A stretch of 64,000 nt of DNA from Candidatus Cloacimonadota bacterium (GTDB lineage Bacteria > Cloacimonadota > Cloacimonadia > G963667145), in contig OY762940.1 of assembly GCA_963667255.1 (NCBI GenBank), positions 1,088,001-1,152,000 on the forward strand. The letters run 5' to 3'. Made by a program: the position numbers and the translations under genes. The notes beneath the pieces were generated by a model. The model did no database searches and was not told the DNA's origin. It saw only the letters and a program-made list of their open reading frames with translations. This document shows, piece after piece, positions 4,383-51,808 of this stretch. Numbering within the stretch: the first letter of the stretch is position 1; each line of letters starts with the position of its first letter.

Positions 4383-4383
4383 G

Positions 4384-6201
4384 ATGAATGCATGGACAGG
4401 AAAAGTTTTAAGAGTTAATTTGACTAAAGGCTTGGTTGAAGTCGAAAAATTGAATTTCGATTTTGCCAAAAACTACATTGGCGGTAGAGGCTTGGGTGTC
4501 AGATATTTTGTGAACGAAGTATCGCCCAAAGTTGATCCGCTTTCCGCAGAAAACAAACTGATTTTTGCTACTGGTCCGTTGACTGGATGTATGGGAGCTT
4601 CTACGGGAAGATATGAGGTTGTGACTAAATCTCCTTTGACAGGAACTATTGCTGGTTCAAACTCGGGTGGACATTTCGGCCCAGAATTGAAATATGCTGG
4701 ATACGATATGGTGATTTTCGAAGGCAAATCCCCCAAACCGGTTTATTTGAGTATTGATGATGACAAAGTTGAACTTCGCTCTGCTGAAGAACTTTGGGGG
4801 AAAGATGTCCCCACTACTACCGACACGATTGTGCAAGCTACTTCTCCAAGTGCCAAAGTTTGCTGTATAGGTCTTGCCGGAGAAAAAATGGCTTTGCTTG
4901 CTTGTATAATGAACGACAAGGACAGAGCTGCCGGAAGAACAGGTCTTGGTGCAGTGATGGGTTCTAAAAATCTCAAGGCTATTGCTGTGCACGGAACTGG
5001 CAATGTAATTCCAGCAGATGCTAAAAAAGCCCTTGATGTGACTATTGATGTTATCGGGAAATTGAAGGCTCACCCCGTTGGTGGAACAGGTCTTCCTACT
5101 TACGGGACCAACATTTTGGTCAATATCATCAATGAATCTGGTGGTTTCCCTACTCGCAACTTTACGGATGCTCAATTTGCAACCGCCAACAAAATTGGTG
5201 GAGAGTCTTTGGCGGATAAGCAATTGGTTAAGAAAAAATCTTGTTTCGGTTGTCCTATCTCTTGCGGTCGGGTTTGCAAGGTCACTAACGAAAAATATGC
5301 TGGATATGGTGAAGGACCTGAATACGAAAGTGCTTGGTCTTTCGGTGGAGAGTGCGGTGTTGACAATCTTGATGCCGTGGTTAAGGCGAATTTCATTTGT
5401 AACGAGAATGGTTTGGATACGATTTCCATCGGTTCTACTATCGGTTGTTTGATGGAGATGTATGAAGCAGGTTTGGTAAAAAAAGAGGATATAGGCTTTG
5501 AAATCGGTTTTGGCGATGAAGAAGCTATGGTTAAATTGGTAAGTATGGCAGCTAATTTGGAAGGAATTGGGAAATTGATTGCCCAAGGTTCTTACAGATT
5601 GTCCGAAAAATTTGGCGACACCAGTTATTCAATGAGTGTGAAAAAACTTGAAATGCCGGCTTACGACCCCCGAGCTATTCAAGGTATAGGTTTAAACTAT
5701 GCCACTTCGAATAACGGTGCCGCCCATGTTAGAGGCTACACTATCTCTCCTGAGGTTTTGGGTGTGCCACAAAAAATCGACCAATTTACCACCGAAGCCA
5801 AAGAGGTTTGGGTAAAAGGTTTCCAAGATTTGACTGCTTGTATAGATTCTTCAGGAATTTGCTTGTTCACTACTTTTGGTCTTGGAGCTCCTGAGATTGC
5901 CGATCAACTTGCTGCCAATACCGGCTTGGATTACACAGCCGACAGTATCGTGGCTATCGGAGAGAGAATACACAACTTGGAGAGATTGTTCAATCTCAAG
6001 GCTGGGATTACTCCTGCTGATGATACTCTTCCCAAGAGAATGTTCGAGTTGCCGGTGATAACAGGACCAGCCAAAGGCAATACCAGTAAAGTAAAGGAAA
6101 TGCTTCCTGCTTATTATAAATTACGAGGTTGGGGGAATGATGGTATTCCTTCCAAAGATAAATTGAAAGAATTGGAGTTATCAGAAATTAAATTTCTCTA
6201 A
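4384..6201 (+). CDS. aor: Tungsten-containing aldehyde ferredoxin oxidoreductase, catalytic subunit
   Basis: GGRGLG, KSPLTG, GR.G.GAVMGSKNLKA, CxxCxxxC, EGPEYE and YDPR motifs. The true start is ATG 4384 after GGAGGT; the ORF-track start at 4195 is an upstream extension. Confidence 0.92.
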   Translation: MNAWTGKVLRVNLTKGLVEVEKLNFDFAKNYIGGRGLGVRYFVNEVSPKVDPLSAENKLIFATGPLTGCMGASTGRYEVVTKSPLTGTIAGSNSGGHFGPELKYAGYDMVIFEGKSPKPVYLSIDDDKVELRSAEELWGKDVPTTTDTIVQATSPSAKVCCIGLAGEKMALLACIMNDKDRAAGRTGLGAVMGSKNLKAIAVHGTGNVIPADAKKALDVTIDVIGKLKAHPVGGTGLPTYGTNILVNIINESGGFPTRNFTDAQFATANKIGGESLADKQLVKKKSCFGCPISCGRVCKVTNEKYAGYGEGPEYESAWSFGGECGVDNLDAVVKANFICNENGLDTISIGSTIGCLMEMYEAGLVKKEDIGFEIGFGDEEAMVKLVSMAANLEGIGKLIAQGSYRLSEKFGDTSYSMSVKKLEMPAYDPRAIQGIGLNYATSNNGAAHVRGYTISPEVLGVPQKIDQFTTEAKEVWVKGFQDLTACIDSSGICLFTTFGLGAPEIADQLAANTGLDYTADSIVAIGERIHNLERLFNLKAGITPADDTLPKRMFELPVITGPAKGNTSKVKEMLPAYYKLRGWGNDGIPSKDKLKELELSEIKFL

Positions 6202-6212
6202 TTGATTTGAGA

Positions 6213-6249
6213 CGGAGCTCTGTATTAATTGCAGAGTTCCGTTTTCTTT
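6213..6249 (+). terminator. Terminator-like hairpin inside the AOR operon
   Basis: ACGGAGCTCTGTA-TTAAT-TGCAGAGTTCCGT followed by TTTCTTT. Confidence 0.65.
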
Positions 6250-6275
6250 ATTAAAAAAAGCTAAAGGATTTTTAA

Positions 6276-6728
6276 ATGGATGAAATATTATCTCGGTATA
6301 AAAAACCTTCCGATGTGATTGCGGTTCTGCAAGATACACAAGAAAAATTTTCTTATCTTTCCGAAGAAAATTTACGAAAAATCAGCCAACACTACCAAAT
6401 TTCTTATGCTTATTTGCATTCCATAGTAACCTTTTACAAAGCTTTTTCGTTGGTGAAAAAGGGCAAAAATGTTATTAGGGTGTGTGATGGCACGGCTTGT
6501 CATATAAAAGGTTCGGTCAAAATTTTGGAAGAACTTCACCGATTGCTGGGCATTAATCCTGGGCAGACAACTGCCGATGAAATGTTTTCCGTGGAAACTG
6601 TAGCTTGCCTTGGTGTGTGTGCGATTGCTCCGGTTATGCTGATAAACGACAAATATTACGGAAATTTGCAAATGGGAGAAATCAGCGGAATAGTTGAAAG
6701 CTATAAAAAGCAGGAGTCGGAAAAATGA
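6276..6728 (+). CDS. NuoE/HydC-like 2Fe-2S subunit
   Basis: CDGTACH and CLGVC thioredoxin-like 2Fe-2S ligands. Confidence 0.9.
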   Translation: MDEILSRYKKPSDVIAVLQDTQEKFSYLSEENLRKISQHYQISYAYLHSIVTFYKAFSLVKKGKNVIRVCDGTACHIKGSVKILEELHRLLGINPGQTTADEMFSVETVACLGVCAIAPVMLINDKYYGNLQMGEISGIVESYKKQESEK

Positions 6729-8497
6729 AAACTATTTATGTATGTTACGGAACAGGTTGCAAAGCCGGTGGTGGTGGTCCTATATCCGATAAATTTGCTG
6801 CTTTGTGCCGAGATAACGAAGTGCGGGTAAAGAGAACCGGTTGCCACGGTTTGTGCCAAGAAGGTCCCTTGGTTCACATCTCTCCCGACGAGATAACTTA
6901 CACCAAAGTCAAAGTGGAAGATGTTCAGGAGATTGTTGAAAAAACGATTAGGAATAACGAGGTTGTCGAGAGATTGCTTTACATCGACAAGGCTCAAAAA
7001 AAACGGGTAAAATCCAAAAATGATTGGTCTTTTTGTAGCAAGCAAAAACGAGTTGTTTTAAAAGAAGTGGGCGAGATTGACCCTCAAAAAATAGAAGACT
7101 ATTTGCAAGCTGGTGGCTACAAGGCACTCAAAAAAGCTTTGGAAATTGGTAGTCAACAGATTTTGCAAGAAGTAAACGATTCCGGTTTGCGAGGTAGAGG
7201 TGGTGGAGGTTTCCATACCGGTAGGAAGTGGAACTCTGTTGCTAAAGCCACAGGTGAACAAAAATTCGTTTTGTGCAACGGAGACGAGGGCGACCCGGGT
7301 GCTTTTATGGACAGGAGCATCATGGAGGGTAATCCTCATTTGGTTTTGGAAGGAATGGCTATCGCAGCTGTCGCCGTGGGAGCGAGTAGAGGCTATGTGT
7401 ATGTGCGAAACGAATATCCTATGGCAGTTGAGCATCTGCAAATGGCTATCGATAGTGCCGAGGGAAAAGGGTATTTGGGACAGAATATTTTGGGTAGCGG
7501 TTTCAATCTGAAAATCGAAATTAAGCGAGGTGCCGGTGCTTTTGTTTGTGGAGAGTCTTCGGCTCTGATGCGGTCAATTGAGGGTAAAATCGGTCAGCCC
7601 AACGAAAAGCACATTCATGCTTCGGACAAAGGTGTGTTTGAAAGCCCAACACTTCTGAACAATGTGGAGACTTATGCCAATGTTCCTACCATAATTTTGG
7701 GTGGAGGAAAAGCTTATGCAGCAACTGGAACGAAAAAATCCCCGGGAACAAAAGTCTTTTCACTGGTCGGCAAAGTGGTAAACACTGGTCTGATAGAAGT
7801 GGAAATGGGTGTGAGCTTGCGAGAAATTATTTTTGATATCGGAGGTGGTATAAAAAACGGCAGAAAGTTCAAGGCGGTGCAAACAGGCGGTCCTTCAGGC
7901 GGTTGCCTTACCGCTGACCATCTTGATGTGAAAATCGACTTTGACACACTCATCGAATACGGCTCAATGATGGGCTCAGGTGGAATGATTATCATGGACG
8001 AGTTTGACTGTATGGTGGAGGTTGCTCGCTATTTCACGGGATTTCTCATTGAAGAGTCTTGTGGCAGATGCACTCCATGCAGAGACGGACTTTTGCAGGT
8101 TTACAAAATTTTGGACAGGATTAGCAAAGGCGAAGGCAAAATGGAAGATTTGGACACTTTGGAAGAGTTCGGACAATACTTGGAATCTTCGGCCTTGTGT
8201 GGCTTGGGCAAATCCGCAGCCAATCCTTTTTTATCAACTTTAAAATATTTCCGCCACGAATTTGTGGAACACATTGAACAAAAATTTTGCCGAGCCGGAG
8301 TTTGTAAGGAACTTTCGACTTTTGTAATTGACGAAGAAAAGTGCAAGAGTTGCGGAATGTGTGCCAAGGTTTGTTCGTTTGGAGCAATCCAAGTTGACGG
8401 CAAAAAATACAGCATCGACCAGTCAAAATGTATGAAATGCAGGGCTTGTTTGGAAGCTTGTAAATTCGGAGCTGTGAGCATAGCAGGGAGGCAATAA
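6725..8497 (+). CDS. NuoF/HydB-like FMN/NAD-binding flavoprotein with N-terminal 2Fe-2S and C-terminal 2x4Fe-4S
   Basis: GRGGGGF, GDEGDPGAFMDR, GAGAFVCGE, GGPSGGC and ESCG.C.PCR.G motifs, plus a C-terminal ferredoxin domain. Confidence 0.92.
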   Translation: MKTIYVCYGTGCKAGGGGPISDKFAALCRDNEVRVKRTGCHGLCQEGPLVHISPDEITYTKVKVEDVQEIVEKTIRNNEVVERLLYIDKAQKKRVKSKNDWSFCSKQKRVVLKEVGEIDPQKIEDYLQAGGYKALKKALEIGSQQILQEVNDSGLRGRGGGGFHTGRKWNSVAKATGEQKFVLCNGDEGDPGAFMDRSIMEGNPHLVLEGMAIAAVAVGASRGYVYVRNEYPMAVEHLQMAIDSAEGKGYLGQNILGSGFNLKIEIKRGAGAFVCGESSALMRSIEGKIGQPNEKHIHASDKGVFESPTLLNNVETYANVPTIILGGGKAYAATGTKKSPGTKVFSLVGKVVNTGLIEVEMGVSLREIIFDIGGGIKNGRKFKAVQTGGPSGGCLTADHLDVKIDFDTLIEYGSMMGSGGMIIMDEFDCMVEVARYFTGFLIEESCGRCTPCRDGLLQVYKILDRISKGEGKMEDLDTLEEFGQYLESSALCGLGKSAANPFLSTLKYFRHEFVEHIEQKFCRAGVCKELSTFVIDEEKCKSCGMCAKVCSFGAIQVDGKKYSIDQSKCMKCRACLEACKFGAVSIAGRQ

Positions 8498-9243
8498 TGA
8501 AAATTTTTATAAACGACAAAGAATGTTCCGCTTGCAAAGGGCAAACTTTATTGCAAGTTGCTCTGGATAACGGCTTTTATATCCCGACTTTGTGCCACAA
8601 TAAAGAGCTTGGAAACTATGCGGGCTGTAGATTGTGTGTGGCTGAACTTCGCGAGGGAGATTGGAGCAAGTTGGTCGCTTCCTGTGAGTTTCCGGTCAAA
8701 GATGGACAAACTTTTTATTTGGATACAGAGAATGTTAAGAAATCGCGAGATTTGTCGGCAAGTCTGCTTTTGGCAAGGTCTCCGGAGTCCAAAAAAGTTT
8801 TAGATGAGATTATGCGAAAAGATGTGGAGATGAGATTTGAGCCGATGACACCGCATTTGGAAGGTTGTATTCTTTGCGGAAAGTGTTATAGGGCTTGTCA
8901 AAAATTGGGAACGGGAGCAATTTCCACCATCAATAGAGGTCACGAAATCACCGTGGAAACTCCGTATGAACAAGGGAATCCCGATTGTATTGGCTGTCTT
9001 GCTTGTGCCGAGGCTTGTCCTACAGGTGCGATTAAGGTTTTCAGGTCGAAAACTCAAGTTGGTATTTGGCATCTTACTCACGAATTGCTTGCTTGTCCGA
9101 TGTGTGGCAAGAGACATATCACGCAAAAATCTTTGGATTTCTTTAGTAAAAAAACAGGAATCCCAAGCGAAGAATTGATTATTTGTCCCGATTGTCGCCA
9201 GAAAAAAACCTCAATGGATCTTCTGTCAGGAATTTCCAGATGA
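8497..9243 (+). CDS. NuoG/HydA N-terminal-like Fe-S subunit (no H-cluster)
   Basis: IPTLC..CRLC..ASC 2Fe-2S motif, CILCGKC/CIGCLAC 4Fe-4S motifs and an extra CPMC..CPDC. Only 248 aa. Confidence 0.85.
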   Translation: MKIFINDKECSACKGQTLLQVALDNGFYIPTLCHNKELGNYAGCRLCVAELREGDWSKLVASCEFPVKDGQTFYLDTENVKKSRDLSASLLLARSPESKKVLDEIMRKDVEMRFEPMTPHLEGCILCGKCYRACQKLGTGAISTINRGHEITVETPYEQGNPDCIGCLACAEACPTGAIKVFRSKTQVGIWHLTHELLACPMCGKRHITQKSLDFFSKKTGIPSEELIICPDCRQKKTSMDLLSGISR

Positions 9244-9464
9244 GTATAACCCTCAAACTTTTTGCATATTTCAGGGATAATAGAGGCGAAGTTTTGCAAA
9301 TAGAATTCAGCGAAGGAATGCGACCTTCGGACTTGTGTAAGAAAATAAAGCTCGATTTAGACGAAGTCTCCATTCTTTTGGTAAATGGTGTCTATACCAA
9401 AGAAGACCCGATACTTAAAGATGGAGATTTGGTTTCTATGTTCCCCGCTGTTGGTGGCGGTTAG
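9240..9464 (+). CDS. moaD: MoaD/ThiS-family sulfur carrier
   Basis: Ubiquitin-like fold ending FPAVGGG. ATG 9240 overlaps the upstream stop. Confidence 0.85.
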   Translation: MSITLKLFAYFRDNRGEVLQIEFSEGMRPSDLCKKIKLDLDEVSILLVNGVYTKEDPILKDGDLVSMFPAVGGG

Positions 9465-9477
9465 GAAAATTTATTTG

Positions 9478-10128
9478 CTACTCTTCTTCCAAATCTATTT
9501 CAATTTTTAAAGATTTTATCTCGTCAATTTTCTTCAAGTTTTTGGCATAAGCCAAAATCACATCGGCAAAAGTTTTGCTGACATAGTCAATCATCGGCAC
9601 GACTTTTCCGTTGACACTCAAAGAGATTTTCATCTTGCTTTCTCTGTTGCCTTTGCACATCATTTTGAATATTTTCTCCGAATTTTTTGTGGCATCTATC
9701 AATTTATAGTTCCCAATCTCTTGTTTTCCACTTTGTGAGCAAACTCCCGAATAACACACAATATTGCTAAAATCAATATCTTTCAAATCGGCTTCATCTT
9801 TTAGGCAAACCACTTTTTCATAATCAGAATCTTTAAAACCTTCTAAAATCAAAAAATCTGTTTTAGCTTCGTTTACGATTTTTGATAAAGACTTTTCCTC
9901 ATTGCTTACCGAAAAACAGATTTTGGGACTGCTCCCGATTACTTTGTCCGCACCTGCTTTGAGAGCTTTATCTGTATCCGTATTTTCTTCATCAAAAGTT
10001 ATATTTTCGCAATGAATATCTTTGGCATAAGTGACCGAAAATCCTTTATTTTTCAGATTTTTAATCAAGTTGATGGAAGTTGTCGTTTTACCCGATTTAC
10101 TAAACCCGCAAACATTGATAATTTTCAT
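9478..10128 (-). CDS. mobB: Molybdopterin-guanine dinucleotide biosynthesis protein B
   Basis: GFSKSGKTT P-loop, KDIH, DT....AGA and LEGFK motifs, with a C-terminal extension domain. Confidence 0.8.
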   Translation of the reverse strand: MKIINVCGFSKSGKTTTSINLIKNLKNKGFSVTYAKDIHCENITFDEENTDTDKALKAGADKVIGSSPKICFSVSNEEKSLSKIVNEAKTDFLILEGFKDSDYEKVVCLKDEADLKDIDFSNIVCYSGVCSQSGKQEIGNYKLIDATKNSEKIFKMMCKGNRESKMKISLSVNGKVVPMIDYVSKTFADVILAYAKNLKKIDEIKSLKIEIDLEEE

Positions 10129-10279
10129 AATTTTATTCCTTTTATTCTTTGTTTAAATTCAGATTATCTCATTCAATTTCGTGAAAATACAAATTGTTTT
10201 TTCTATTATAAAAATGTAAATTTATTTCTTGACTTTAATTAGATTTTACTTGTAATTAGTTCGTTTGGGGGTCAGGTCA

Positions 10280-11440
10280 ATGAATAGAAAAATCGCTTTG
10301 GAAATTTTATTGCAAAAAGTTTCCGCTTTAAATTCTTTTAAAATTAATGTCTCAAAAAGCGAAAATTGTGTTCTTGCTTCTCCCGTTTTTTCTCAAATAG
10401 ATTTACCTTCTTTTGATAAATCCGCCATGGACGGCTTTGCCATTTGTGAAGATGAAACTCAAGAAACTTTGCAAGTGGTTGATTTTACAGCTGCTGGCGA
10501 ATCTCCTTCCTCAAAACTTAGCAAAGGGAAAGCGGTTAAAATTTTGACTGGAGCACCTGTTCCTAAAAATGCTTGGAAAATTATTCCCAAAGAATTGGTT
10601 AGTGAAAATGAGAATACTATTGTTCTTAATTGTCAGCTTAAGGAAGCTCCAAACAATATTTGCTCAAAAGGCGAGGATATCCCCCAAGGGCAACTTTTGT
10701 ATCCCAAGGGGACTTTGATTGATATCCGAAAAAAAGCGACTTTGGTTTTTGCAGGAGTAAATGAGGTTGAGGTTTTTTCCAAGCCGAGAATATCGGTGAT
10801 TACCACAGGAAGCGAGGTAGTTTCCTTTGGCGATAAAAGAGGCAAATACCAAGTTTATAATGCCAATGCAGAGTTGCTTTTCGGACTTTTAAATAAAGAG
10901 TTGGACACGGCAGATTTTTCGCATGTTGCCGACGAATACTCTTTGGTGGAAGCGGAATTTAATCAAAAATTTGAGAAGTCCGATTTGTTGATTTTTACCG
11001 GTGGAGCTTCCGTAGGCAAATTTGATTATGTGAAAAAAATGCTGAAATCTTTGGGAGCGGAGGAACTTTTTTCTGGTTTGTCCATCAGACCCGCACGACC
11101 TACAGCTTGCTATTTGTTTAAGGGCAAATTGATTTTTTCGCTTCCGGGTAATCCTGTGGCGGTTTTTTTGGCTTACCATTTGTTTGTTTTGCCTGTGATT
11201 TACAAAATGCAGTCCAAAGTTTGTAATTTATTTAGAGAAGTAGAAATTACTGGAAAATTACAAGTTAGATTAAAAGACAGAGAAAATTTTGTTCCGATAA
11301 AATATAATGACAAAAAAATCGAAATTCTTGATTATAACGGACCTGCGGATTTATATCATATCTCACTTGCAGATGGGTTTTTAGTCGTTCCGCCGGAAAC
11401 AAAAATTGTAGAAGGCAAAGCGAAAGTTTTGCTCTTTTAA
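10280..11440 (+). CDS. moeA: Molybdopterin molybdo/tungsto-transferase
   Basis: SAMDGFA, TGAPVP, TGSE, TGG.SVG..D and LPGNP motifs. Confidence 0.9.
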   Translation: MNRKIALEILLQKVSALNSFKINVSKSENCVLASPVFSQIDLPSFDKSAMDGFAICEDETQETLQVVDFTAAGESPSSKLSKGKAVKILTGAPVPKNAWKIIPKELVSENENTIVLNCQLKEAPNNICSKGEDIPQGQLLYPKGTLIDIRKKATLVFAGVNEVEVFSKPRISVITTGSEVVSFGDKRGKYQVYNANAELLFGLLNKELDTADFSHVADEYSLVEAEFNQKFEKSDLLIFTGGASVGKFDYVKKMLKSLGAEELFSGLSIRPARPTACYLFKGKLIFSLPGNPVAVFLAYHLFVLPVIYKMQSKVCNLFREVEITGKLQVRLKDRENFVPIKYNDKKIEILDYNGPADLYHISLADGFLVVPPETKIVEGKAKVLLF

Positions 11441-11464
11441 AATAACAAAAAAATTAAGGAGGAC

Positions 11465-12412
11465 ATGATTATGTTCAAAAAATTGAAATTAGTGGCTTTG
11501 ATTTGCATTTTTGCTTTTTCGTCTCTTTTGGCTAAAGAAAGTAAGTTGGTAATTTTCCATGCGGGGAGTTTGGCTATTCCTTTGCAAAAAATGAGCGAGG
11601 CTTTTAACGAGAAGTATCCAGATGTGCAAATAATGAGAGAAGCAGCCGGTTCTCGTGTATGTGCAAGAAAAATCAGTGAGTTGAATAAAAAAGCCGATAT
11701 TATGTTTTCTGCTGATTATACGGTAATTGATGAACTTTTGATTCCTAAGTTTGCCGATTGGAACATTCATTTTGTAACCAACGAAATGGCTATTATGTTT
11801 GGTCATAATGCAAAATATGCCGATGAGATTACTGTTGAAAATTGGCCTGAAATTTTACTTCGCAAAGATGTAACTTACGGACATTCAGACCCTAATGCTG
11901 ACCCATGTGGCTATAGAAGTCAACTTGTTTGGCAATTGGCTGAAAAGTATTACAAATTACCTGGTTTGTATGAAAAATTGAGAGAAAACAATCCTATCGT
12001 GAGACCAAAAGAGACTGACTTGGTGGCTTTGTTGGAAGCCGGAACTCTTAACTATTTGTTTATCTATCGTTCTGTTGCTCAGCAACATGGAGCTAAATAT
12101 TTGGTATTGCCTGATGAAATAAATTTGAAGACTGCCAAATTTGCTGATTTTTACAAACAAGCTACTTTTGATATTAGCGGCAAAAAGCCTGGGGAGTTCA
12201 TTACCAAAAAAGGTGCTCCAATGGTTTATGGATTGACTATTCCTAACAATGCGGTAAACAAAAAAATGGCTGAAAAGTTTGTAGCTTTTGTTTTGAGTGA
12301 AGAGGGAAGAAAAATTATGGAAGATTGTGGTCAACCTGCTATCGTTCCGGCAAAGATTACCGGCAAAGAAAAATCACTTCCTTCTTCTATAAAAAAATTT
12401 GTAAAAGAGTAA
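11465..12412 (+). CDS. wtpA: Tungstate ABC transporter substrate-binding protein
   Basis: Signal peptide, plus HAGSL, GSR, SADY, DPNADPCGYR, RPKE and YRSVA.QH motifs typical of WtpA. Confidence 0.85.
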   Translation: MIMFKKLKLVALICIFAFSSLLAKESKLVIFHAGSLAIPLQKMSEAFNEKYPDVQIMREAAGSRVCARKISELNKKADIMFSADYTVIDELLIPKFADWNIHFVTNEMAIMFGHNAKYADEITVENWPEILLRKDVTYGHSDPNADPCGYRSQLVWQLAEKYYKLPGLYEKLRENNPIVRPKETDLVALLEAGTLNYLFIYRSVAQQHGAKYLVLPDEINLKTAKFADFYKQATFDISGKKPGEFITKKGAPMVYGLTIPNNAVNKKMAEKFVAFVLSEEGRKIMEDCGQPAIVPAKITGKEKSLPSSIKKFVKE

Positions 12413-12427
12413 AAACAGGAAAATCAA

Positions 12428-13198
12428 GTGAAAAAAGTTTTTATTGCTTTGGGTGCGATAATCATCTTTATGATTGTTTTTCCGATTATAAAGATTTTTT
12501 GGGGAATTGACCTTACTATTCTTAGCGATACTTTGAGAGATTCTGTGGTTTTTTCGGCAGTTTTTACTTCTTTGGAATGTTCGCTCTATGCCACACTTGC
12601 AGGATTTCTTCTGGGAATTCCGCTTGCTTACATTATCGCCAGACACAATTTTTATGGTAAAGAACTGGTTTCTTCAATTATAAATATCCCTATCGTCGTG
12701 CCACATTCGGCGGCAGGGATAGCTCTTTTGTCGGCTTTTGCTTCTCATACTTTTTTGGGGAAAGGGCTTGCCGCACTTGGACTTACCATCATCGATACCA
12801 AGCTTGGTATAAGTTTGGGGATGTTTTTTTTGAGTGTGCCTTTTCTCATCAATCAAAGTATTGGGGGGTTTCTAAGCTATGACGAGAGAATAGAAAAATC
12901 TGCTAGAGTTTTAGGAGCTGGTTTTAGCAGAACTTTTTTTACCATCAGTTTGCCACTTGCTCGGCACGGCATCATCAAAGGTTTCATCATGATGTGGGCA
13001 AGAGGTATTTCGGAGTTCGGAGCTGTGGTCATTTTGGCTTATCATCCGCTTACAGCTTCCGTTTTGATTTTTGAAAGATTTGGAGCTTTCGGCTTGAGAT
13101 ATTCCAAGCCGATTGCTTCTTTATTAATTTTAATCTGCCTGTTCATTTTTATGGTAGTGCAATTGATTTCCAATGTTAAAAATAAATCAGATAACTAA
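12428..13198 (+). CDS. wtpB: Tungstate ABC transporter permease
   Basis: Hydrophobic. PH..AGIAL, EAA-like SAR.LGA and WARG.SEFGA motifs. Confidence 0.85.
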   Translation: MKKVFIALGAIIIFMIVFPIIKIFWGIDLTILSDTLRDSVVFSAVFTSLECSLYATLAGFLLGIPLAYIIARHNFYGKELVSSIINIPIVVPHSAAGIALLSAFASHTFLGKGLAALGLTIIDTKLGISLGMFFLSVPFLINQSIGGFLSYDERIEKSARVLGAGFSRTFFTISLPLARHGIIKGFIMMWARGISEFGAVVILAYHPLTASVLIFERFGAFGLRYSKPIASLLILICLFIFMVVQLISNVKNKSDN

Positions 13199-14201
13199 AA
13201 AATTTTCCCAATTTACTCTAAACGAGATAAATTTTACCATTAATAAGGGCGAATGCACCGCAATTTTGGGTCCGTCAGGTTCGGGCAAAACTATTTTGAT
13301 GGAGACGATTGTCGGCATTCACAAGCAAACTTCGGGGCAACTATTCCTAAACGGCAAAGAGATTAGCCATACCAAGCCCGAAAATCGCGATATTTCGCTT
13401 TTGTATCAAAATTATATGCTTTTCCCACATCTCAATGTTTACGAAAATATAGCTTTCCCGCTAAAATTACGAAAAATTCCTGAAATTCCGCAAAAGATAA
13501 GCAAAATTGCTCATTTATTGAAGATTGAACATCTTTTGAAAAGGTCGGTTCATAACCTTTCTGGTGGAGAAAAACAGCGGGTCGCTCTTGCCAGAGCCAT
13601 TATTTTTGAACCGCAAGTTCTTCTTTTGGACGAGCCAACTTCGGCGATTGACACTCATATGAAGCGAAAAGTTCGCAAGCTAATTCGGGAAATTCACAAA
13701 AGTCTCAATCTGACTATTCTCTTGGTCACTCATTCCATTGAGGAGGCTATCTATTTGGCGGATTCTTTTGTCTTCCTAAAAGATGGTCAGCAATTACAAC
13801 AAGGCAAAAAGTTTGAAGTTTTCAACAATCCCCAAAATCGTTATATCGCCAATTTTCTCGGCTATGACAATGTTTTTGAAGGAGAGGTTGAAGACGGCAA
13901 ATTTGCTATCAAAAACACCAATCTCAAAATATCTTTTTTTAAAGAAGAGATTCCCAAGTGTATTCATGTTTCGCCCGACAATATCATCATTTCCAAGGAA
14001 AAGCCCGAGAGTTCGGCAGTGAATGTTTTTGAAGGAACATTGCAAGATTTTGCTTTCAAAGGCAGTTTCTATCAATTGTTTTTCGACATCGGAGTGGAAA
14101 TTTTGGTAAATATCACAGATGCCTCATTCGAAAATCTCCAACCAAAACTCGGCACCAAATTTTATCTATCATTCAAAGAAAGAGGAGTGAAGGGGTTTTA
14201 G
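13173..14201 (+). CDS. wtpC: Tungstate ABC transporter ATPase
   Basis: GPSGSGKT, LSGGEKQR and LLLDEP motifs, with a C-terminal TOBE-like domain. Confidence 0.85.
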   Translation: MLKINQITKKFSQFTLNEINFTINKGECTAILGPSGSGKTILMETIVGIHKQTSGQLFLNGKEISHTKPENRDISLLYQNYMLFPHLNVYENIAFPLKLRKIPEIPQKISKIAHLLKIEHLLKRSVHNLSGGEKQRVALARAIIFEPQVLLLDEPTSAIDTHMKRKVRKLIREIHKSLNLTILLVTHSIEEAIYLADSFVFLKDGQQLQQGKKFEVFNNPQNRYIANFLGYDNVFEGEVEDGKFAIKNTNLKISFFKEEIPKCIHVSPDNIIISKEKPESSAVNVFEGTLQDFAFKGSFYQLFFDIGVEILVNITDASFENLQPKLGTKFYLSFKERGVKGF

Positions 14202-14218
14202 GAAATAAAATAATTTAA

Positions 14219-14955
14219 GGTTCAAGATAACTTGACAAGTGAATTATACTAGTTAAGTTGTTGATATGCCAATAAGAAACAAGTACGTAAAAAACTCCAA
14301 AATTTCTGAAGAAAAATTTAGAGAAATAATTAAGTTTTTTTCTTTGGATATTGAGGCTAGTAAAATAGCACTTTTGACCAAAATTAGTAGAAAAACAGTT
14401 AACAATTATTTACTTAAAATTAGAGAGAGAATTGCTGAATTTTGTTGTGAGGATTCTCATCTTTCTGGAATAATTGAAGTTGATGAATCTTACTTTGGAG
14501 CGAAAAGAGTTAAGGGGAAACGAGGACGAGGTGCTGGAGGTAAAATTAAAGTTTTCTGATTGCTCAAAAGAGGCGACAAAGTTTACACTCAAATGGTTGA
14601 TAATTGTAGCAGAAAGACATTACAAGCGATAATAAAAGAAAGGATAGAAAAGGGTAGTGAAATTCACTCTGATGGATGGAAAGCTTATAATGGATTGGTT
14701 GATTTAGGATACCAAAAACACTATAGAGTTGACCATTCGAGCAATGAATTTGCCAATAAAAATGGACATATTAATGGGATTGAGAACTTTTGGGGAATAG
14801 CAAAATTGAGACTAACAAAATTTAAAGGAATTCATAAAAATATGTTCTATTTACACTTAAAAGAATGTGAATTTAGGTTTAATCATAGAAAGCAAAATTT
14901 ATATAAAATTTTGCTAAAAATGTTCCGAAATAATCCGCTCAAGTTATCTTGAACC
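14219..14955 (+). mobile_element. IS1595-family (IS1016-like) insertion sequence, 737 bp
   Basis: Perfect 17-bp terminal inverted repeats GGTTCAAGATAACTTGA (14219-14235) and TCAAGTTATCTTGAACC (14939-14955). An 8-bp direct repeat TAATTTAA flanks it at 14211-14218 and 14956-14963. Confidence 0.92.
14266..14952 (+). pseudogene. IS1595-family DDE transposase interrupted by an in-frame TGA (14557-14559)
   Basis: EVDESYFG, HSDGWKAY, HINGIENFW and YLHLKECEFRFN motifs. The two ORF-track pieces are in the same frame, reading KVF*LLKRG where Gly is expected. Confidence 0.88.
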
Positions 14956-15039
14956 TAATTTAAATATTTTGAATTGACAGATTTTAATTTAAAGTGTTTA
15001 TAGGTATTTGTTTTTTCCAAAATTTTAATTGAGGTTTAG

Positions 15040-17283
15040 ATGAGTATAGAACAAAGTATAATTTCTAGGCGAGAAAGTGATAAGAAAGTTGAAACCCAAC
15101 AATGGTTTCAAAAACTTATACAAACAAGCGAATATGTTGGTGATTTGTATTCTATCAACTATGAAACCGCAAGAGTAATAATTCATGATTTCTATAGAGA
15201 GAAAGTCGGAGGAATTCCAAGCTTAAGTTTTTTAATTGCCTCAAGAGTTGACCCCAATAATTCAGAAATTGATTTTAAAACAGAGGATGCATCATTTATT
15301 CTTTTAAGAGTAATGGATGCTATAGCGCTTCCGCAGGATAGAGAGGCAGAAAGAATTAGAGTTGAAACAGCACAAAGAATAAGTGGTGAAACTGAAAAAA
15401 ATTGGGATGAAGCAGGTTCAATGGATTTAAGAACAAAAAATCTGTTAAGTTTTGCTGGTGTTCAGTGCAGAATAATTGGAACATTTTATCTCGAAGAAAA
15501 TGGAGAAAATGGAGAAGCACCACTTAATTTAAAATTTGGTAGTGATATTTCAAATTATTATCCAAACAGAGGATTAAAAGTTTATAAACCAAACGGGAAG
15601 GCTCTTGAGTTAATAGTAAATTATTCTGATCCTTCAAATATTCAAGCACACATTGAAAAATATGGAAACACAGAAAATGTAAAATTGGGTTTTGTAAGAT
15701 ATGCTTCAACAAATAGAAAATATCAACAAATTAGTGATGTCCCTGTTTATATTTATCCAGCAGACCTTCTATCTCAAAAATCTGCCTTGTTTGGAATGAC
15801 AAGGACAGGAAAATCCAATACGACTAAAATAATTGCAAAATCTGTTTTTGAATTACGAAATGCACAACGGTCTGGAGAAAATCCATTAAGAATTGGACAA
15901 ATAATTTTTGATCCCAACGGTGAATATGCCAATGAAAATGTTCAAGATAGGGACGGTAGCGGTAATCCAAATGCATTAAAAAATATTTGGCGAAAAGACG
16001 AAACTTTAAGAAATATTGCTGATAAGCTGAAACAACAATATATTCAAGAAACAGAAATCGAAGAAAAGAAAAGATTATGGAATGAAATAAAATCATTGGT
16101 TGAAACAGAGGTGGTTACATATGGTATTTTACCACATCCACTAGACCCATTTCGTAGATTAATGAAAATAAACTTTTATGAAGAAGACAATCTTCAAATA
16201 GGTAAAGAAATCATTGATTTTAAAATTGCGGAGCAGTCAGCTCAGTATATTAAAAATTTTCGACAAGTTGTTTTCAAAAGACCAGTAGAAGATGAATACG
16301 AGAATGAGGTTGAATTTAATGGACAATTAAGGCGTTTTGAGAGAAGAGTTCTTGTTTATTGTGCATTGCTAAATAAAGCAGGTTTTAATCCACCGTTTCG
16401 AACAGTTAATATTTCAAGAATGTTTAATGCTGACCTAAGAAATGCTATGATTAACTATTCTGAAAAAAAATTTACACGTAAACAAGGATTAATAAATGCA
16501 GCGGGTCAAACTCTGTCACAAACAAATGTAACCTGGGATAGTCTTGCACCTGCTTTTGAAGGTTTGTTCCATTTCCTTTCAACTGCTGATTACAATACAT
16601 TCAACCAAGATTACATAAATAATCATCGTGATGATGAGAATGAGGATGCTACAGGAGAAGGTTGGGCTGAAGCAGAACTTGAAAGTTTGTTGGAAATGTT
16701 TAATTATTCAAAAGCTATTAATCTAATTGGTGGTGTAAATACACAACATACAACATCAATAAGAACAGATTACGCCGAAGATATTTATAATGATTTAACT
16801 GAAGGGAAACTTGTTATTATTGACCAATCAAGTGGTGAGCCAGAACTAAACAAGTCTTCAGCAAATAGAATAATGTGGCATATTTTTAAAGCTAACCAAA
16901 GTGCATTTCGAGAGGGTGAGAAATTAATTCCCGAAATATTGGTTTATGTGGAGGAAGCTCATAATATATTACCAGCTGGTAATGATTTAGATTTAACCGA
17001 TGTTTGGGTTAGGACAGCAAAGGAAGGTTCAAAATATAGAATTGGGATGGTTTACGCAACCCAAGAAGTAAGTAGTATTCAAAGAAATATTTTAAAAAAT
17101 ACAGCGAATTGGTTTATAAGCCATTTAAACAATACTGATGAAACCAAAGAACTATGCAAGTACTATGATTTTGAAGACTTTGAGCCATCAATAAGGCGAG
17201 CACAGGATAAGGGTTTTTTAAGAGTTAAAACTTTAAGCAATCTGTTTGTAATTCCAGTTCAGGTTGACAAATTTGAAGTCTAA
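15040..17283 (+). CDS. HerA-like (DUF87) FtsK/HerA-superfamily ATPase
   Basis: N-terminal HAS-barrel-like region, Walker A GMTRTGKS, IIFDPNGEY, Walker B VYVEEAHN and KEGSKY..MVYATQ. Confidence 0.85.
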   Translation: MSIEQSIISRRESDKKVETQQWFQKLIQTSEYVGDLYSINYETARVIIHDFYREKVGGIPSLSFLIASRVDPNNSEIDFKTEDASFILLRVMDAIALPQDREAERIRVETAQRISGETEKNWDEAGSMDLRTKNLLSFAGVQCRIIGTFYLEENGENGEAPLNLKFGSDISNYYPNRGLKVYKPNGKALELIVNYSDPSNIQAHIEKYGNTENVKLGFVRYASTNRKYQQISDVPVYIYPADLLSQKSALFGMTRTGKSNTTKIIAKSVFELRNAQRSGENPLRIGQIIFDPNGEYANENVQDRDGSGNPNALKNIWRKDETLRNIADKLKQQYIQETEIEEKKRLWNEIKSLVETEVVTYGILPHPLDPFRRLMKINFYEEDNLQIGKEIIDFKIAEQSAQYIKNFRQVVFKRPVEDEYENEVEFNGQLRRFERRVLVYCALLNKAGFNPPFRTVNISRMFNADLRNAMINYSEKKFTRKQGLINAAGQTLSQTNVTWDSLAPAFEGLFHFLSTADYNTFNQDYINNHRDDENEDATGEGWAEAELESLLEMFNYSKAINLIGGVNTQHTTSIRTDYAEDIYNDLTEGKLVIIDQSSGEPELNKSSANRIMWHIFKANQSAFREGEKLIPEILVYVEEAHNILPAGNDLDLTDVWVRTAKEGSKYRIGMVYATQEVSSIQRNILKNTANWFISHLNNTDETKELCKYYDFEDFEPSIRRAQDKGFLRVKTLSNLFVIPVQVDKFEV

Positions 17284-17294
17284 ATTGAGTTAAT

Positions 17295-18662
17295 ATGGGG
17301 TTTGAAGGAGAATTTGCCAGTTATGAGCCATTAAGGCGAATGCTTGATAGTGATAAAGTTAAATCACTACAAGACAGACTGAAAATACGAAAACAAGAAG
17401 AAGAAACAGATACTTTCACTGGCTCAATTGTTAAAAAGTCAGACTTGACTGAAAGCTCAATACAACCTGATTTAGTTTTAGCAATTGATGGAAGCAATTT
17501 GGCGGCTAAAGCTGAAAGTGGATTTCCGGGTGCTGAATTTGGATATATTACAATAGCTTCTGTTTTAATAGATTTAAAACTTATTGATGATTTAGAAAAG
17601 AAACAGTTTATTGACCCCAAAAAGGTTAGAGAAACAGAAAAAGCATCGACAATAGAAAGTGTCTTCCCCGGTTGCAATGTAATTTTGGACACAGAAAAAA
17701 ATGCAAATGCTTCACTTCGAAGAGCATTATTTGAAGAATTAAAATGTAACACAATATTTGCTAACGGTGGAGAAACATTATTGGATACTTATGAATACCT
17801 CTTCAGAATAAAGAGAGAGCATTTCTCTGAAAGCCGTCTTCCAAGAAGCCCTATTGATGGTATTGATAAAGAAATGACTTATGGATACGATGAATATCCT
17901 TGTCCTCATTCAGGAGAGCCATTATATTCAACTGATGCTTTGCGTTTACATGAATTAATGAATCCTGGTGGTAGTAATGGTGAAATGTTTGGGCAAATAA
18001 TGTCAACTCTTGAAAAGGTATGGTTGGTTCATATACTCAGAGCATTTGAACAAAAAGAATGGTTATCAACCCTTCGGAGAGTAGCATTTATTATGGATGG
18101 ACCATTAGCTGTATTTAGTACTTCATCTTGGTTGACAAAAGTTATTAATTATGAATTAAATAGGCTAAATGAATTGCAGAAAGCAGTTAACGGTCAGGAT
18201 TTATTAATTATCGGTATTGAAAAATCAGGAACATTCGTAAATCATTTCGAAGAAATTGATACGACTAAAGATGGAGTTACAGATAAATTTCCAAAACAAT
18301 CAGCATTACTGCTTGACGATGGCTATATAAAAAGAAATATTATTTTTTCTGAAAGCATAAAACCATATGGTCAAGACACTTATTTTGGAAGAAAAATATT
18401 TTATAAAACTGCTTCTGGACAAAAAATAGTTCCAGTAATTGCATGTTATAATGACCAACAAAGAAATACCTCAACAGCAAATCCAAATCAATTTTCAAGG
18501 CTTTCAGATGTTATGAATTTGCTTGATAAATTGGTTTCAAGTAGATATCCAAATTCCGTTTCTCCTTTAGTATCTGCTCATGCAGAAGCAGCAATTCCTT
18601 TAAATTTAGGTAAACGGATATTTGAGGATATTGCAAGAGAAATAAGAGAAAAATCAAATTGA
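17295..18662 (+). CDS. NurA-like RNase H-fold nuclease
   Basis: LAIDGS, FIMDGPL, IGIEKSG and C-terminal AHAEA match the NurA motif pattern. It directly follows the HerA gene. Confidence 0.75.
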   Translation: MGFEGEFASYEPLRRMLDSDKVKSLQDRLKIRKQEEETDTFTGSIVKKSDLTESSIQPDLVLAIDGSNLAAKAESGFPGAEFGYITIASVLIDLKLIDDLEKKQFIDPKKVRETEKASTIESVFPGCNVILDTEKNANASLRRALFEELKCNTIFANGGETLLDTYEYLFRIKREHFSESRLPRSPIDGIDKEMTYGYDEYPCPHSGEPLYSTDALRLHELMNPGGSNGEMFGQIMSTLEKVWLVHILRAFEQKEWLSTLRRVAFIMDGPLAVFSTSSWLTKVINYELNRLNELQKAVNGQDLLIIGIEKSGTFVNHFEEIDTTKDGVTDKFPKQSALLLDDGYIKRNIIFSESIKPYGQDTYFGRKIFYKTASGQKIVPVIACYNDQQRNTSTANPNQFSRLSDVMNLLDKLVSSRYPNSVSPLVSAHAEAAIPLNLGKRIFEDIAREIREKSN

Positions 18663-19789
18663 TGATTACAAAGGAAAAGATATTAAAAGGTTATAAAACC
18701 GCGGAGGCTCGATGGGCAAGATTTGGTCCATATTATGCCATGTTTCCTTTGGATTTTGCATTTGAGGTTGTTGAGAAATACTCAAAAAAAGGTGATTACA
18801 TACTTGACCCTTTTGCAGGTAGATGTAGCAGTATCTATGCTGGTGGTGTGCTTGGTCGAGTTAGCTTAGGTATTGAAATTAATCCCGTAGGCTGGCTCTT
18901 TGGGAAAGTAAAATTAGAACCTGCAGATAAGGAAGATGTAATTGACCGTTTACTTGAAATTTATGGTAAGCGAAATTATTATAGATGCTCAACTAAAAAA
19001 TTACCAGAATTTTATAGGATATGTTATAGCGATGAAGTCCTAAAATTCCTATTAGCAGCGAGAGCAAATCTTGACTGGATAAATAATGACATTGATGCAA
19101 CTCTTATGTCAATTCTTTTGGTTTACTTACATGGTAAATTAGGAGAATGTTTGTCAAATCAAATGAGAATGACAAAGTCAATGGGAATGAACTATTCTGT
19201 TGAATGGTGGAAAAAAAATGGACTAACAAAACCACCTGAAATTAATCCCTTTGAATTCATTCTTAAAAAGATTGAATGGAGATATGAAAAAGGGACACCA
19301 AATGTTACTGAAAGTGCAGTTGTATTTGGTGATAGTTCTAATCAATTAATCAACATTTCAGAGAGAGCCATTCAAAATGATATTAAATTTTCGCTTCTGT
19401 TTACATCTCCACCATATTATTCAATCACAGATTACCATGCAGACCAGTGGCTGAGATTATGGCTGTTAGGAGGTTCAGAAAATCCGCAATCATTAAAAGA
19501 CAAACATAAAGGAAGATTTGTAAACAAAGTTGATTACTACAATTTACTTGATACTGTATTTGAACTTAGTTCACGAATGATGGACGAAAGGAGTACAATT
19601 TATGTCAGGACAGACAAGCGTGAATTTACTTTTAATTCTACTTTAGAGATTTTAAACAAGCATTTTCCAAATTATAAAACAAAGATTATTGAAAAGCCTT
19701 TAACTAAAGACACCAAGACTCAGACAAAATTATTTGGTGACAAATCAATGAAGCCTGGAGAAGTTGATATAATATTACAAATAGAATAA
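18662..19789 (+). CDS. DNA amino-methyltransferase (SPPY type, probably m4C)
   Basis: GPYYAMFP, motif I ILDPFAG, GIEINP and motif IV FTSPPY. The start overlaps the NurA stop (TGATG). Confidence 0.85.
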   Translation: MITKEKILKGYKTAEARWARFGPYYAMFPLDFAFEVVEKYSKKGDYILDPFAGRCSSIYAGGVLGRVSLGIEINPVGWLFGKVKLEPADKEDVIDRLLEIYGKRNYYRCSTKKLPEFYRICYSDEVLKFLLAARANLDWINNDIDATLMSILLVYLHGKLGECLSNQMRMTKSMGMNYSVEWWKKNGLTKPPEINPFEFILKKIEWRYEKGTPNVTESAVVFGDSSNQLINISERAIQNDIKFSLLFTSPPYYSITDYHADQWLRLWLLGGSENPQSLKDKHKGRFVNKVDYYNLLDTVFELSSRMMDERSTIYVRTDKREFTFNSTLEILNKHFPNYKTKIIEKPLTKDTKTQTKLFGDKSMKPGEVDIILQIE

Positions 19790-19826
19790 TTAGCTGTTTT
19801 TTAAGAAATAGTTGTATAATTCTTTT

Positions 19827-20489
19827 TCACTCCCCAACCACTCTCATCTCATAATTTCCCAAATCAGCGAGCAAGATTTTATTTAATAGTTTCGGCTTTC
19901 TCCAAACCACATTTATAACTTCGTCGGCTATCAAACTGCCAATAAACATCACGGATTGCGGGCAGATAGCACGGGAAATAGCATTGTCATCTTTTCTTTT
20001 GTATAGCTCGTCCAAGCTTAAAAAATCGCTTTCTCCGTGAAAAGTGGCGACTTGCCCGTATTTTTTTTCTACCGCTCCATGCACCAAGAAATTTTGTTTG
20101 CCGACCAATTTTTGAATTTGTTTTTTGGTTGCAAAGCCGTCCACACAATCCACAAAGCAATCAGATGAGTGGATTTCGCTTGTTTTGTTTATATCTTGCA
20201 AATGGCAATAAATTTGGCAGTCGGGATTTATTTGGCTCAATTTGGCAAAAGCAGTTTCCGTTTTGAGTTTGCCGATATCTTGGCTATCATACAAAAGCTG
20301 TCTGCCAATGTCGGAATCATTGATTTTGCCGTTGTCGTATAGATGGAAATTTTGCACTCCAGCACGAATTAAAACTTGCAAAACACTGCAACCAAGTCCG
20401 CCCAAGCCGAAAATGCTAATCTTACAATTTTTCAAAATTTCTTGTTTTTCTTTGCCCCAGAGCATCTCGTTTCTACTGAAAAAATTCAT
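19827..20489 (-). CDS. ThiF/MoeB-family adenylyltransferase
   Basis: FSRN, GLGGLG, D.G.I..SD..RQ and DCVD motifs. Context is the tungsten-cofactor cluster. Confidence 0.8.
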   Translation of the reverse strand: MNFFSRNEMLWGKEKQEILKNCKISIFGLGGLGCSVLQVLIRAGVQNFHLYDNGKINDSDIGRQLLYDSQDIGKLKTETAFAKLSQINPDCQIYCHLQDINKTSEIHSSDCFVDCVDGFATKKQIQKLVGKQNFLVHGAVEKKYGQVATFHGESDFLSLDELYKRKDDNAISRAICPQSVMFIGSLIADEVINVVWRKPKLLNKILLADLGNYEMRVVGE

Positions 20490-51794: not shown

Positions 51795-51808
51795 TTTTGG
51801 AGTAAGTT

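Follow-up and report, generated by a model that had tools for sequence, protein, structure and literature searches.

We describe a cassette of three genes, encoding a HerA-type DNA translocase, a NurA-type nuclease and a predicted DNA amino-methyltransferase (MTase), found in a stretch of 64,000 nucleotides from Candidatus Cloacimonadota bacterium (contig OY762940.1, positions 1,088,001 to 1,152,000), called hereafter the window. The three genes form a conserved, stand-alone, horizontally spread mobile cassette. The cassette is real and widespread, and probably works like the TdpABC system without being a member of it. That it serves defence of some kind is rather likely. The chances are about even that methylation marks self DNA while HerA-NurA degrades unmarked DNA, which by analogy would make it a restriction-modification (R-M) like system, the methyl counterpart of TdpABC.

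Conservation and spread of the cassette

The three open reading frames (ORFs) run in one direction: herA is followed by an 11-nt gap, then by nurA and, through a TGATG overlap, by the MTase gene (Table 1). The latter gives 375 aa from an ATG at 18662, or 376 aa from a TTG at 18659. Gene coordinates, gap, overlap and motifs had been given in a preliminary description made from the sequence, and all were recovered unchanged. A public contig spanning 14817–20500 has 0 differences to the window; it probably comes from the source sample, and therefore backs the assembly only. Contigs of two runs (X7 and X8) span the cassette apart from ~16300–16800, which fits the mosaic reported below; none bridges this gap, and they were not counted as evidence.

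Homologues were collected from both ends of the cassette. The NurA-anchored set comprises 38 loci of the GTDB collection, with hosts mostly among Bacteroidota and also among Ignavibacteria, Cloacimonadota, Beckwithbacteria, Caldisericales, Campylobacterota, Gammaproteobacteria and Treponema. The MTase gene was directly downstream of nurA in 38/38, and herA upstream in 37/38, the last contig beginning within nurA. The MTase-anchored set consists of the best 80 of 570 confirmed metagenome matches. NurA was present in 69 of them, i.e. in 69 of the 71 testable loci: nine had too little upstream DNA, and two carried a GmrSD_N/DUF262 gene. HerA was found in 53 of these 69 loci, and the other 16 contigs begin at or inside nurA. 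The three-gene synteny, which the preliminary description had proposed to check, is thus kept among homologues. A 2026 review states that bacterial NurA-HerA mainly degrades viral DNA, and also that bacterial nurA is without stable synteny, the latter being contradicted by the cassette (PMC13748450). No conserved fourth gene, insertion sequence (IS), type IIG restriction enzyme or integrase was found beside the 38 related cassettes, and a single integrase neighbour was seen among the 35 loci with flanks.

The distribution, which the preliminary description had also proposed to check, is patchy. Searched with a NurA profile, the phylum gave 4 of 232 genomes, or 2 of the 151 of high quality, with the genome of the window included, and in the window's genus the cassette NurA is present in 2 of 6 genomes. 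A genome of the same genus, G002, carries the cassette at another site (HerA 73%, NurA 90% and MTase 78% identity), and another, G005, gave no match to it. The copy on a metagenome contig, L064, resembles that of the window more (NurA 97%) than does the one in the same genus, suggesting that they were acquired separately. Elsewhere in the phylum, a full cassette lies downstream of what look, by eye, like type I R-M genes (G207), and a distant split HerA and NurA lie beside a D12-like methylase (G029, judged by eye from the N-terminal sequence of the methylase only). No match to the cassette was found in E. coli genomes.

Some copies are broken. In the NurA-anchored set, four loci (L021, L026, L032 and L038) are broken in herA or nurA and have a whole MTase gene, the reverse was found in 0 loci, and one locus has all three genes broken. 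A wider tally of 79 loci, biased by the selection on the MTase, counted 69 intact cassettes, 7 with a split herA (2 of them at contig ends), 2 with a split nurA and 1 with all genes split.

Neighbours were scanned with PADLOC, taking in up to two ORFs per side and any ORF within the cassette; the 35 loci with flanks gave 121 ORFs, and G001 another 7. At E<=1e-20, 16 of the 121 ORFs matched, one of them a false ClpB match, and true matches were obtained in 11 of the 35 loci: dGTPase (three times), Avs2, Septu, PDC-S02/05/13/14, Fic and caspase. At the same threshold, 53 other window genes taken as a control gave 0 true matches, the ABC ATPase gene wtpC being a false one. The control is a single housekeeping-rich window and dGTPases can be housekeeping enzymes, so the neighbour evidence is modest. 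Among the individual arrangements, a dGTPase gene and a 233-aa unknown gene lie directly 3' of the MTase gene in L011, L015 and L016 (10489–12577). A GIY-YIG/DUF4357 gene (PADLOC PDC-S14) stands between herA and nurA in L018 (7144–7989) and L032 (341–1186).

The three proteins

HerA matches Pfam DUF87 (E 2.4e-12, above cut-off). Its residues G252, G257, K258 and S259 (Walker A), D291, E638, E639, H641 and Q675 are invariant in 70/70 complete cassettes (repeat fetches L041, L055, L188 and L189 left out). TdpA is the best sequence match of HerA in the PDB (E 2.3e-14). It is also the best fold match of the HerA model (Z 10.6, root-mean-square deviation (rmsd) 7.1, 419 residues aligned), with 8wiv (DndH-C) and another HerA within 1 Z; this model is middling, with a predicted local distance difference test score (pLDDT) of 66 and an unreliable C-terminus. 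The Sir2-HerA and DUF4297-HerA pairs are among the fold matches as well. NCBIfam models of anti-phage HerA proteins gave 27–32 bits on HerA, versus cut-offs of 800–850.

NurA matches Pfam PF09376 (E 1.7e-31, above cut-off). In the complete cassettes, D65 is invariant (70/70), and D268 and E309 are found in 68/70 and 69/70. The NurA model (pLDDT 73) best matches TdpB (8wfd_G, Z 17.8, rmsd 4.2, 316 residues aligned), versus Z 12.2 for the archaeal NurA of Sulfolobus. A sequence search of the PDB, with the single protein or a profile, gave no meaningful match for NurA, and the link to TdpB is by fold alone. The preliminary description had called the system one built from repair parts, which is misleading: of the solved structures, those of the Tdp pair are closest to the two effectors, with a small lead in the case of HerA. 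Among 8000 scored candidates, 1845 relatives of NurA were found at E<=1e-10; the database label of such genes is 'DNA double-strand break repair nuclease NurA'. In a deep tree of NurA proteins marked with their modifier types, most branchings were not resolved.

The MTase matches Pfam N6_N4_Mtase PF01555 (E 8.7e-11, above cut-off), and its profile matches are DNA N4-cytosine/N6-adenine amino-methyltransferases. D49-P50-F51, G53 and T248-SPPY252 are invariant in 70/70 complete cassettes, the S-adenosylmethionine (SAM)-binding motif preceding the SPPY motif. The same order, FxGxG then SPPY, is described for the N4-methylcytosine (m4C) enzyme M.DraR1 (PMC6712171). To judge from its motifs, the MTase is an alpha-class enzyme and likely has an N4-cytosine product. 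Its middle region, likely the target-recognition domain, is as conserved as the remainder, suggesting a single fixed site and not a range of specificities. At E<=1e-30 the MTase has 81 clusters.

GATC was considered as the target, being the most depleted 4-mer in close cassettes (observed/expected 0.43). As evidence from site avoidance this was rejected, since all 8 palindromes checked are rarer in cassettes than in flanks (GATC 0.30 vs 0.57, CTAG 0.31 vs 0.50); a value of 1.04 in a distant cassette group, and a host genome that avoids many 4-mers, also counter it.

Relatives of the MTase occur in other settings. A GmrSD_N/DUF262 gene, not nurA, precedes an MTase of the same clade in L122 (703–2912) and L142 (158–2300), possibly a two-gene sister system. 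In L133 (4297–6312) and in protein P0007 the MTase is fused to a DUF6088/AbiEi-like antitoxin domain, the L133 MTase being convergent. Protein P0046 joins a DUF87 HerA part to the C-terminal half of the MTase, and is perhaps a deletion product.

Exchange of the central domain of HerA

Comparison of close cassettes revealed that the central helical domain of HerA is exchanged by recombination, independently of NurA and MTase. Between L064 and the window, the N-terminal part of HerA is 96% identical, NurA 97% and the MTase 93%, whereas the HerA insert is only 33% identical. At the DNA level, identity is 91–97% upstream, falls to 14–73% within ~15900–17000, and is again 91–98% downstream. Identity drops likewise in L063 and L002, and in L001 the change comes ~200 nt later. 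Conversely, the insert (~305–565) of L037 is 77% identical to that of the window although NurA is at 64%, and the insert of L019 is at 75%.

Across 44 close cassettes, in which the pairs are not independent, pairwise identity of the insert correlates at 0.42 with that of NurA and at 0.27 with that of the MTase, and the N-terminal part of HerA correlates at 0.91 with NurA. Approximately unbiased (AU) tests were made with trees built from 33 cassettes out of the 70. The grouping seen for NurA is rejected by the data of the insert (p 1.6e-50), and that of the insert by the data of NurA (p 0.0015); as the groups had been named after the identities were seen, the tests are not blind. Among 79 pairs with NurA identity of at least 88%, the insert was below 65% in 10, and the MTase below 80% in 4.

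The insert alleles are homologous to one another. The insert sits between the Walker A and Walker B parts and is helical in the HerA model, with pLDDT mostly 75–95 in this block. An ESM Atlas search with it returned unnamed or weak DUF87 clusters only, with scores up to 0.91. In Thermococcus HerA, the domain at that position (HB) captures the DNA substrate, the HAS domain binds NurA, and HerA-NurA cuts both strands of double-stranded DNA (PMC12977600). From its position and this report, we infer that the helical insert is the HB (DNA-entry) domain. The window, L064, L063 and L002 are 93–97% identical outside this domain, and are ready-made pairs to learn its role.

In four further loci (L031, L033, L071 and L072) NurA is 51–60% identical to that of the window, while the MTase is at 69–79%. 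The nurA gene appears to be likewise exchanged as a module.

Relatives in phages and plasmids

Of 45 viral loci, the closest, L143, is a phage contig with the METHYLTRANSFERASE. Its MTase is 83% identical to that of the window and 94% to that of locus L065, and nests among cassette MTases in the tree. The stretch shared with L065, 92% identical in DNA over 1188 bp, comprises the MTase gene and the last ~60 nt of nurA. In L143 the MTase gene lies amid tape-measure and holin-like genes, with no HerA or NurA within 7 kb on either side. Judging by the sequence, the nurA remnant is a capture scar, the MTase having been taken from a cassette. In viral locus L144 (45%), the MTase precedes terminase and portal genes, the upstream side being cut. 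In two distant loci of the viral collection, L158 and L165, the MTase is preceded by HerA, and L158 also shows a weak NurA upstream. INPHARED phages held no close relative of the MTase (best 29.5%).

Distant relatives (24–28%) were found on 5 plasmids and in 2 Vibrio phages, and four of these seven were opened. A haloarchaeal plasmid has the order herA-nurA-MTase. A Deferribacter plasmid has MTase-herA-nurA, with herA split by an IS200/IS605 element. In a Vibrio phage, a split herA and nurA face a Dam-like D12 MTase. The fourth, a Tolypothrix (cyanobacterial) plasmid, is taken up below. A split herA beside a whole MTase ORF was noted in three distant relatives, namely Vibrio phage PQ189353 (L059, 1309–5751), the Deferribacter plasmid and G029 (listed loci L059, L062 and L192).

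Comparison with known systems

The cassette resembles TdpABC in having three genes for a HerA-type motor, a NurA-type nuclease and one DNA modifier. In structure its HerA and NurA match TdpA and TdpB best, though distantly, with only 14–18% identity over the structural alignments. In contrast, its third gene encodes a SAM-dependent base methyltransferase and not the sulfur-inserting TdpC, and because of this replacement the cassette is not a TdpABC member. A search of the genome with the PAPS-reductase family PF01507, which we take as a stand-in for TdpC, gave one match, below cut-off and away from the cassette. HerA also differs in length (747 aa, versus 586 aa), and the cassette hosts are mesophilic, whereas TdpABC is of thermophiles. 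According to An and colleagues (2025), TdpAB reportedly breaks down phage DNA that lacks the phosphorothioate (PT) modification, and this mark inhibits it. Structures of TdpABC in the PDB include 8wet, 8wfd and 8y1k. The sources describe Tdp as the third PT system, with the single gene tdpC and a GATC consensus (PMC12914056), and count it as a PT-based R-M system (PMC12914056, PMC13223576).

The second look-alike is the operon of ICETh1 in Thermus thermophilus HB27, likewise mobile and tightly spaced, in which a PF01555 methylase is encoded together with NurA and a HerA-family ATPase. It consists of Tth111II/TthHB27I, nurA (TTC1878), tdtA (TTC1879) and an N4-N6 methylase gene (TTC1880), according to two reports (PMC5365140, PMC7767461). 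There, loss of nurA lowers transjugation by 4–5 orders of magnitude, and loss of tdtA abolishes it. The preliminary description knew of no experimentally characterised system with this three-gene architecture, a statement that has to be withdrawn given this look-alike studied for DNA donation. The differences are several. A type IIG restriction enzyme leads the ICETh1 operon, whereas the cassette has neither a restriction enzyme nor a conserved integrase. The order is nurA-herA-MTase, instead of herA-nurA-MTase, and NurA is 377 aa long, versus 455 aa. Finally, the ICETh1 operon is part of an integrative element that has an integrase and att repeats, and its shown function is DNA donation.

With canonical HerA-NurA (archaeal herA-mre11-rad50-nurA; Deinococcus, Thermococcus) the cassette shares folds and catalytic motifs, and presumably also the 6:2 ring that feeds double-stranded DNA to NurA. 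It differs in being without Mre11/Rad50, patchy, mobile and always with an MTase, and its structural scores to the canonical proteins are below those to Tdp. Sir2-HerA (Nezha) and DUF4297-HerA likewise tie a HerA motor to an effector for defence, but are described with another effector in place of NurA, and with no modification enzyme. Type II R-M systems with an alpha-class m4C MTase, such as M.DraR1, share the motif order of the MTase; in contrast to them, the cassette has no conserved site-specific endonuclease, and the partner of the MTase is a processive motor-nuclease.

In an open-access library, from which most subscription journals are missing, no paper was found that names or tests a herA-nurA-methyltransferase defence system. 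A 2004 survey of HerA gene neighbourhoods, reportedly by Iyer and colleagues, may already mention such operons.

Proposed mechanism and alternatives

In the mechanism that we propose, the MTase would methylate one short site, probably at N4 of cytosine. A HerA hexamer would catch DNA at its helical-bundle end and pump it, driven by ATP, into a NurA dimer cutting both strands. The methyl mark would stop or prevent degradation of self DNA, as phosphorothioate is reported to do for TdpAB. This third step is the weakest, and mark-sensing is the most weakly inferred part because no reader domain was identified. Phages, in turn, may answer by acquiring the MTase and by inhibitors of the DNA-entry domain; this would account for the swapping of that domain rather than of the MTase.

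Synteny, patchiness, horizontal spread, defence-type neighbours and closeness to TdpAB support the modification-linked defence reading of the preliminary description, once its wording on repair parts and on the lack of a characterised system is changed. The unrelated modifiers beside distant HerA-NurA pairs (Dam-like D12 in the Vibrio phage, D12-like in G029) speak for it as well, as do the GmrSD_N/DUF262 partner of the same MTase clade in L122 and L142, the effector-free MTase gene of phage contig L143 and the cleavage of both strands reported for HerA-NurA. A bolder version can be put forward tentatively. It holds that such systems form a distinct R-M class, in which a non-specific HerA-NurA shredder is held off by interchangeable marks (N4-methylcytosine, Dam-type N6-methyladenine or phosphorothioate); diversification would affect the swappable DNA-entry domain and not the target site, through an arms race against inhibitors from phages, which for their part would steal the MTase.

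Several observations weigh against modification-linked defence. Neither NurA nor HerA has an evident base-reading domain. The swapped domain does not follow the MTase (Spearman 0.27, versus 0.77 for NurA). Phage capture of the MTase comes from the single metagenomic contig L143, the MTase of which deviates at one nearly invariant residue. The Tolypothrix plasmid has helix-turn-helix (HTH)-herA-nurA with no adjacent MTase. For a location in defence islands, which had been proposed as a check, 11/35 loci give modest support; most copies stand alone, 24/35 having no strong defence neighbour, and the window's own cassette is isolated amid housekeeping genes. PADLOC 2.0 gave partial HerA and type II MTase matches only on the window's cassette, and none of its models is a good fit to NurA (best E 0.0086). 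That effectors are broken more often than MTases (4 vs 0) is not significant, with a probability of ~0.3 by gene length. Last, the ICETh1 operon, the only studied one to unite NurA, HerA and a PF01555 methylase, is one of DNA donation, and its sources list a TTC1880 deletion strain and give minor transfer effects for loss of the methylase (PMC5365140, PMC7767461).

One alternative is an anti-phage system independent of methylation, in which the variable helical domain would sense a phage protein or free ends of DNA and so trigger killing of the phage or the cell, with the MTase as a recruiting or regulatory subunit. The swapped domain does behave like a sensor or inhibitor target, Sir2-HerA and DUF4297-HerA, found among the fold matches, work without methylases, and the cyanobacterial plasmid holds a relative without MTase. 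Against it, the catalytic residues of the MTase are invariant in all 70 cassettes, the MTase alone was captured by a phage, and unrelated modifier families stand beside relatives. We hold it to be unlikely.

DNA donation in the manner of ICETh1, with HerA exporting chromosomal DNA, NurA helping, and the methylase protecting or tagging the transferred DNA, seems clearly improbable. The ICETh1 operon unites nurA, tdtA and a PF01555 methylase gene, losses of nurA or tdtA cut or abolish transfer, and the cassette does spread across phyla. However, neither a type IIG restriction enzyme nor an integrase nor any other conserved partner goes with the cassette in the 38 loci, and both the gene order and the length of NurA depart from ICETh1. 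Thermus transfer moreover requires a naturally competent recipient (PMC5365140, PMC7767461).

A selfish addiction module, the nuclease motor of which kills cells losing the MTase with little real protection against phages, is very improbable. Stand-alone insertions between housekeeping genes fit it, as do the four loci with breaks in herA or nurA and a whole MTase; the asymmetry of breaks is, however, the non-significant one given above, and both the swapping of the HerA entry domain and the capture of the MTase by a phage would be left unexplained. HerA-NurA is classically tied to end resection, and the genome, being without an sbcD match, may have a repair gap to fill, yet a double-strand-break repair module with a hitch-hiking MTase is scarcely credible for a cassette present in so few genomes of its phylum and genus, with no mre11/rad50 nearby, an obligate MTase linkage and a NurA closer to TdpB than to repair NurA.

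If modification-linked defence is true, the TdpABC logic of a motor-nuclease held off by a DNA mark is no longer confined to backbone sulfur and to thermophiles, but also takes in base methylation and many kinds of ordinary bacteria. This would matter, too, for the question whether Thermus has repurposed a defence system in its ICETh1 operon. The cassette further raises the question by what means a translocase-nuclease senses a methyl group when it has no known base-reading domain.

Insertion site and genome surroundings

The cassette lies between wtpC and a moeB/thiF-like gene, and the features of the locus are collected in Table 1.

Table 1. Features of the cassette and of its upstream side (window positions).
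Feature	Position	Strand	Remarks
herA: HerA/FtsK-family DNA translocase	15040–17283	+	747 aa; HAS barrel, RecA core, helical insert
Recombined tract within herA	15900–17000	+	~aa 290–650; centred on all-helical insert aa 305–575; DNA identity drop, tree conflict
nurA: NurA/TdpB-like RNase H-fold nuclease	17295–18662	+	455 aa; PF09376
Alpha-class amino-methyltransferase (MTase) gene, likely N4-cytosine	18662–19789	+	375 aa; DPFxG before TSPPY; PF01555
Leader upstream of herA	14964–15039	+	Stretch from IS to start codon
IS1595-family element	14219–14955	+	Neighbour, not part of system; interrupted transposase; target duplication 14211–14218 / 14956–14963

It had been described as splitting a tungsten-cofactor cluster. 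It does separate the two genes, but these are convergent, so that the insertion is between two converging transcription units and not inside an operon. The empty site is seen in G003 and G004, of the same genus, where wtpC directly overlaps the convergent moeB/thiF-like gene. G001 carries other, unrelated genes at the same site (L054 4718–9902; window 14202–19826): a flavin adenine dinucleotide-dependent protein, GNAT, SnoaL-like, aldose epimerase and unknowns. The wtpC / moeB-like junction is thus an insertion hotspot. The surrounding tungsten-enzyme cluster (window 4195–14201 and 19827–20489) comprises aldehyde ferredoxin oxidoreductase, NuoEF-like iron-sulfur genes (by eye), MobB, MoeA, WtpABC and the ThiF/MoeB-like gene.

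An IS does adjoin the cassette, as had been noticed. It has 17-bp perfect terminal repeats and its own 8-bp target duplication, and two partial relatives with 80–84% identity lie elsewhere in the genome, which indicates that it inserted independently. As a mobiliser of the cassette it was ruled out, by this duplication and by its presence on one side only. Apart from the IS ends, there are no long flanking repeats in 14150–19900. A promoter scan of the leader gave 7 sites versus 5.0 +/- 3.0 in shuffles, which is chance level, and no promoter was assigned. The AT-richness noted earlier is real and moderate: GC content is 32.7% in the cassette versus 39.3% in the genome, and 7.4% of equal-sized (4.75-kb) windows reach so low a value. 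The genome, 98.9% complete, gave no sbcD/Mre11 match, and no mre11/rad50 gene was found near the cassettes, in agreement with the earlier remark on the absence of Mre11/Rad50.

In a sample of 250 long ORFs of genome G000, compared with codon-shuffled sequences, several 4-bp palindromes are rare (ACGT 0.01, GGCC 0.06, GTAC 0.10, GATC 0.11, CTAG 0.15). Such strong avoidance suggests a heavy past or present R-M load. Elsewhere in the window, a Panacea/SocA-like antitoxin gene (51809–52279, PF13274 E 5e-17) overlaps a 143-aa ORF with a weak PADLOC NsnC match, and the AT-rich patch 51144–52703 likely holds a toxin-antitoxin pair. A 747-aa ORF at 839–3079 has a C-terminal PD-(D/E)XK_1 nuclease domain (E 8.5e-12) and is possibly AddB-like.

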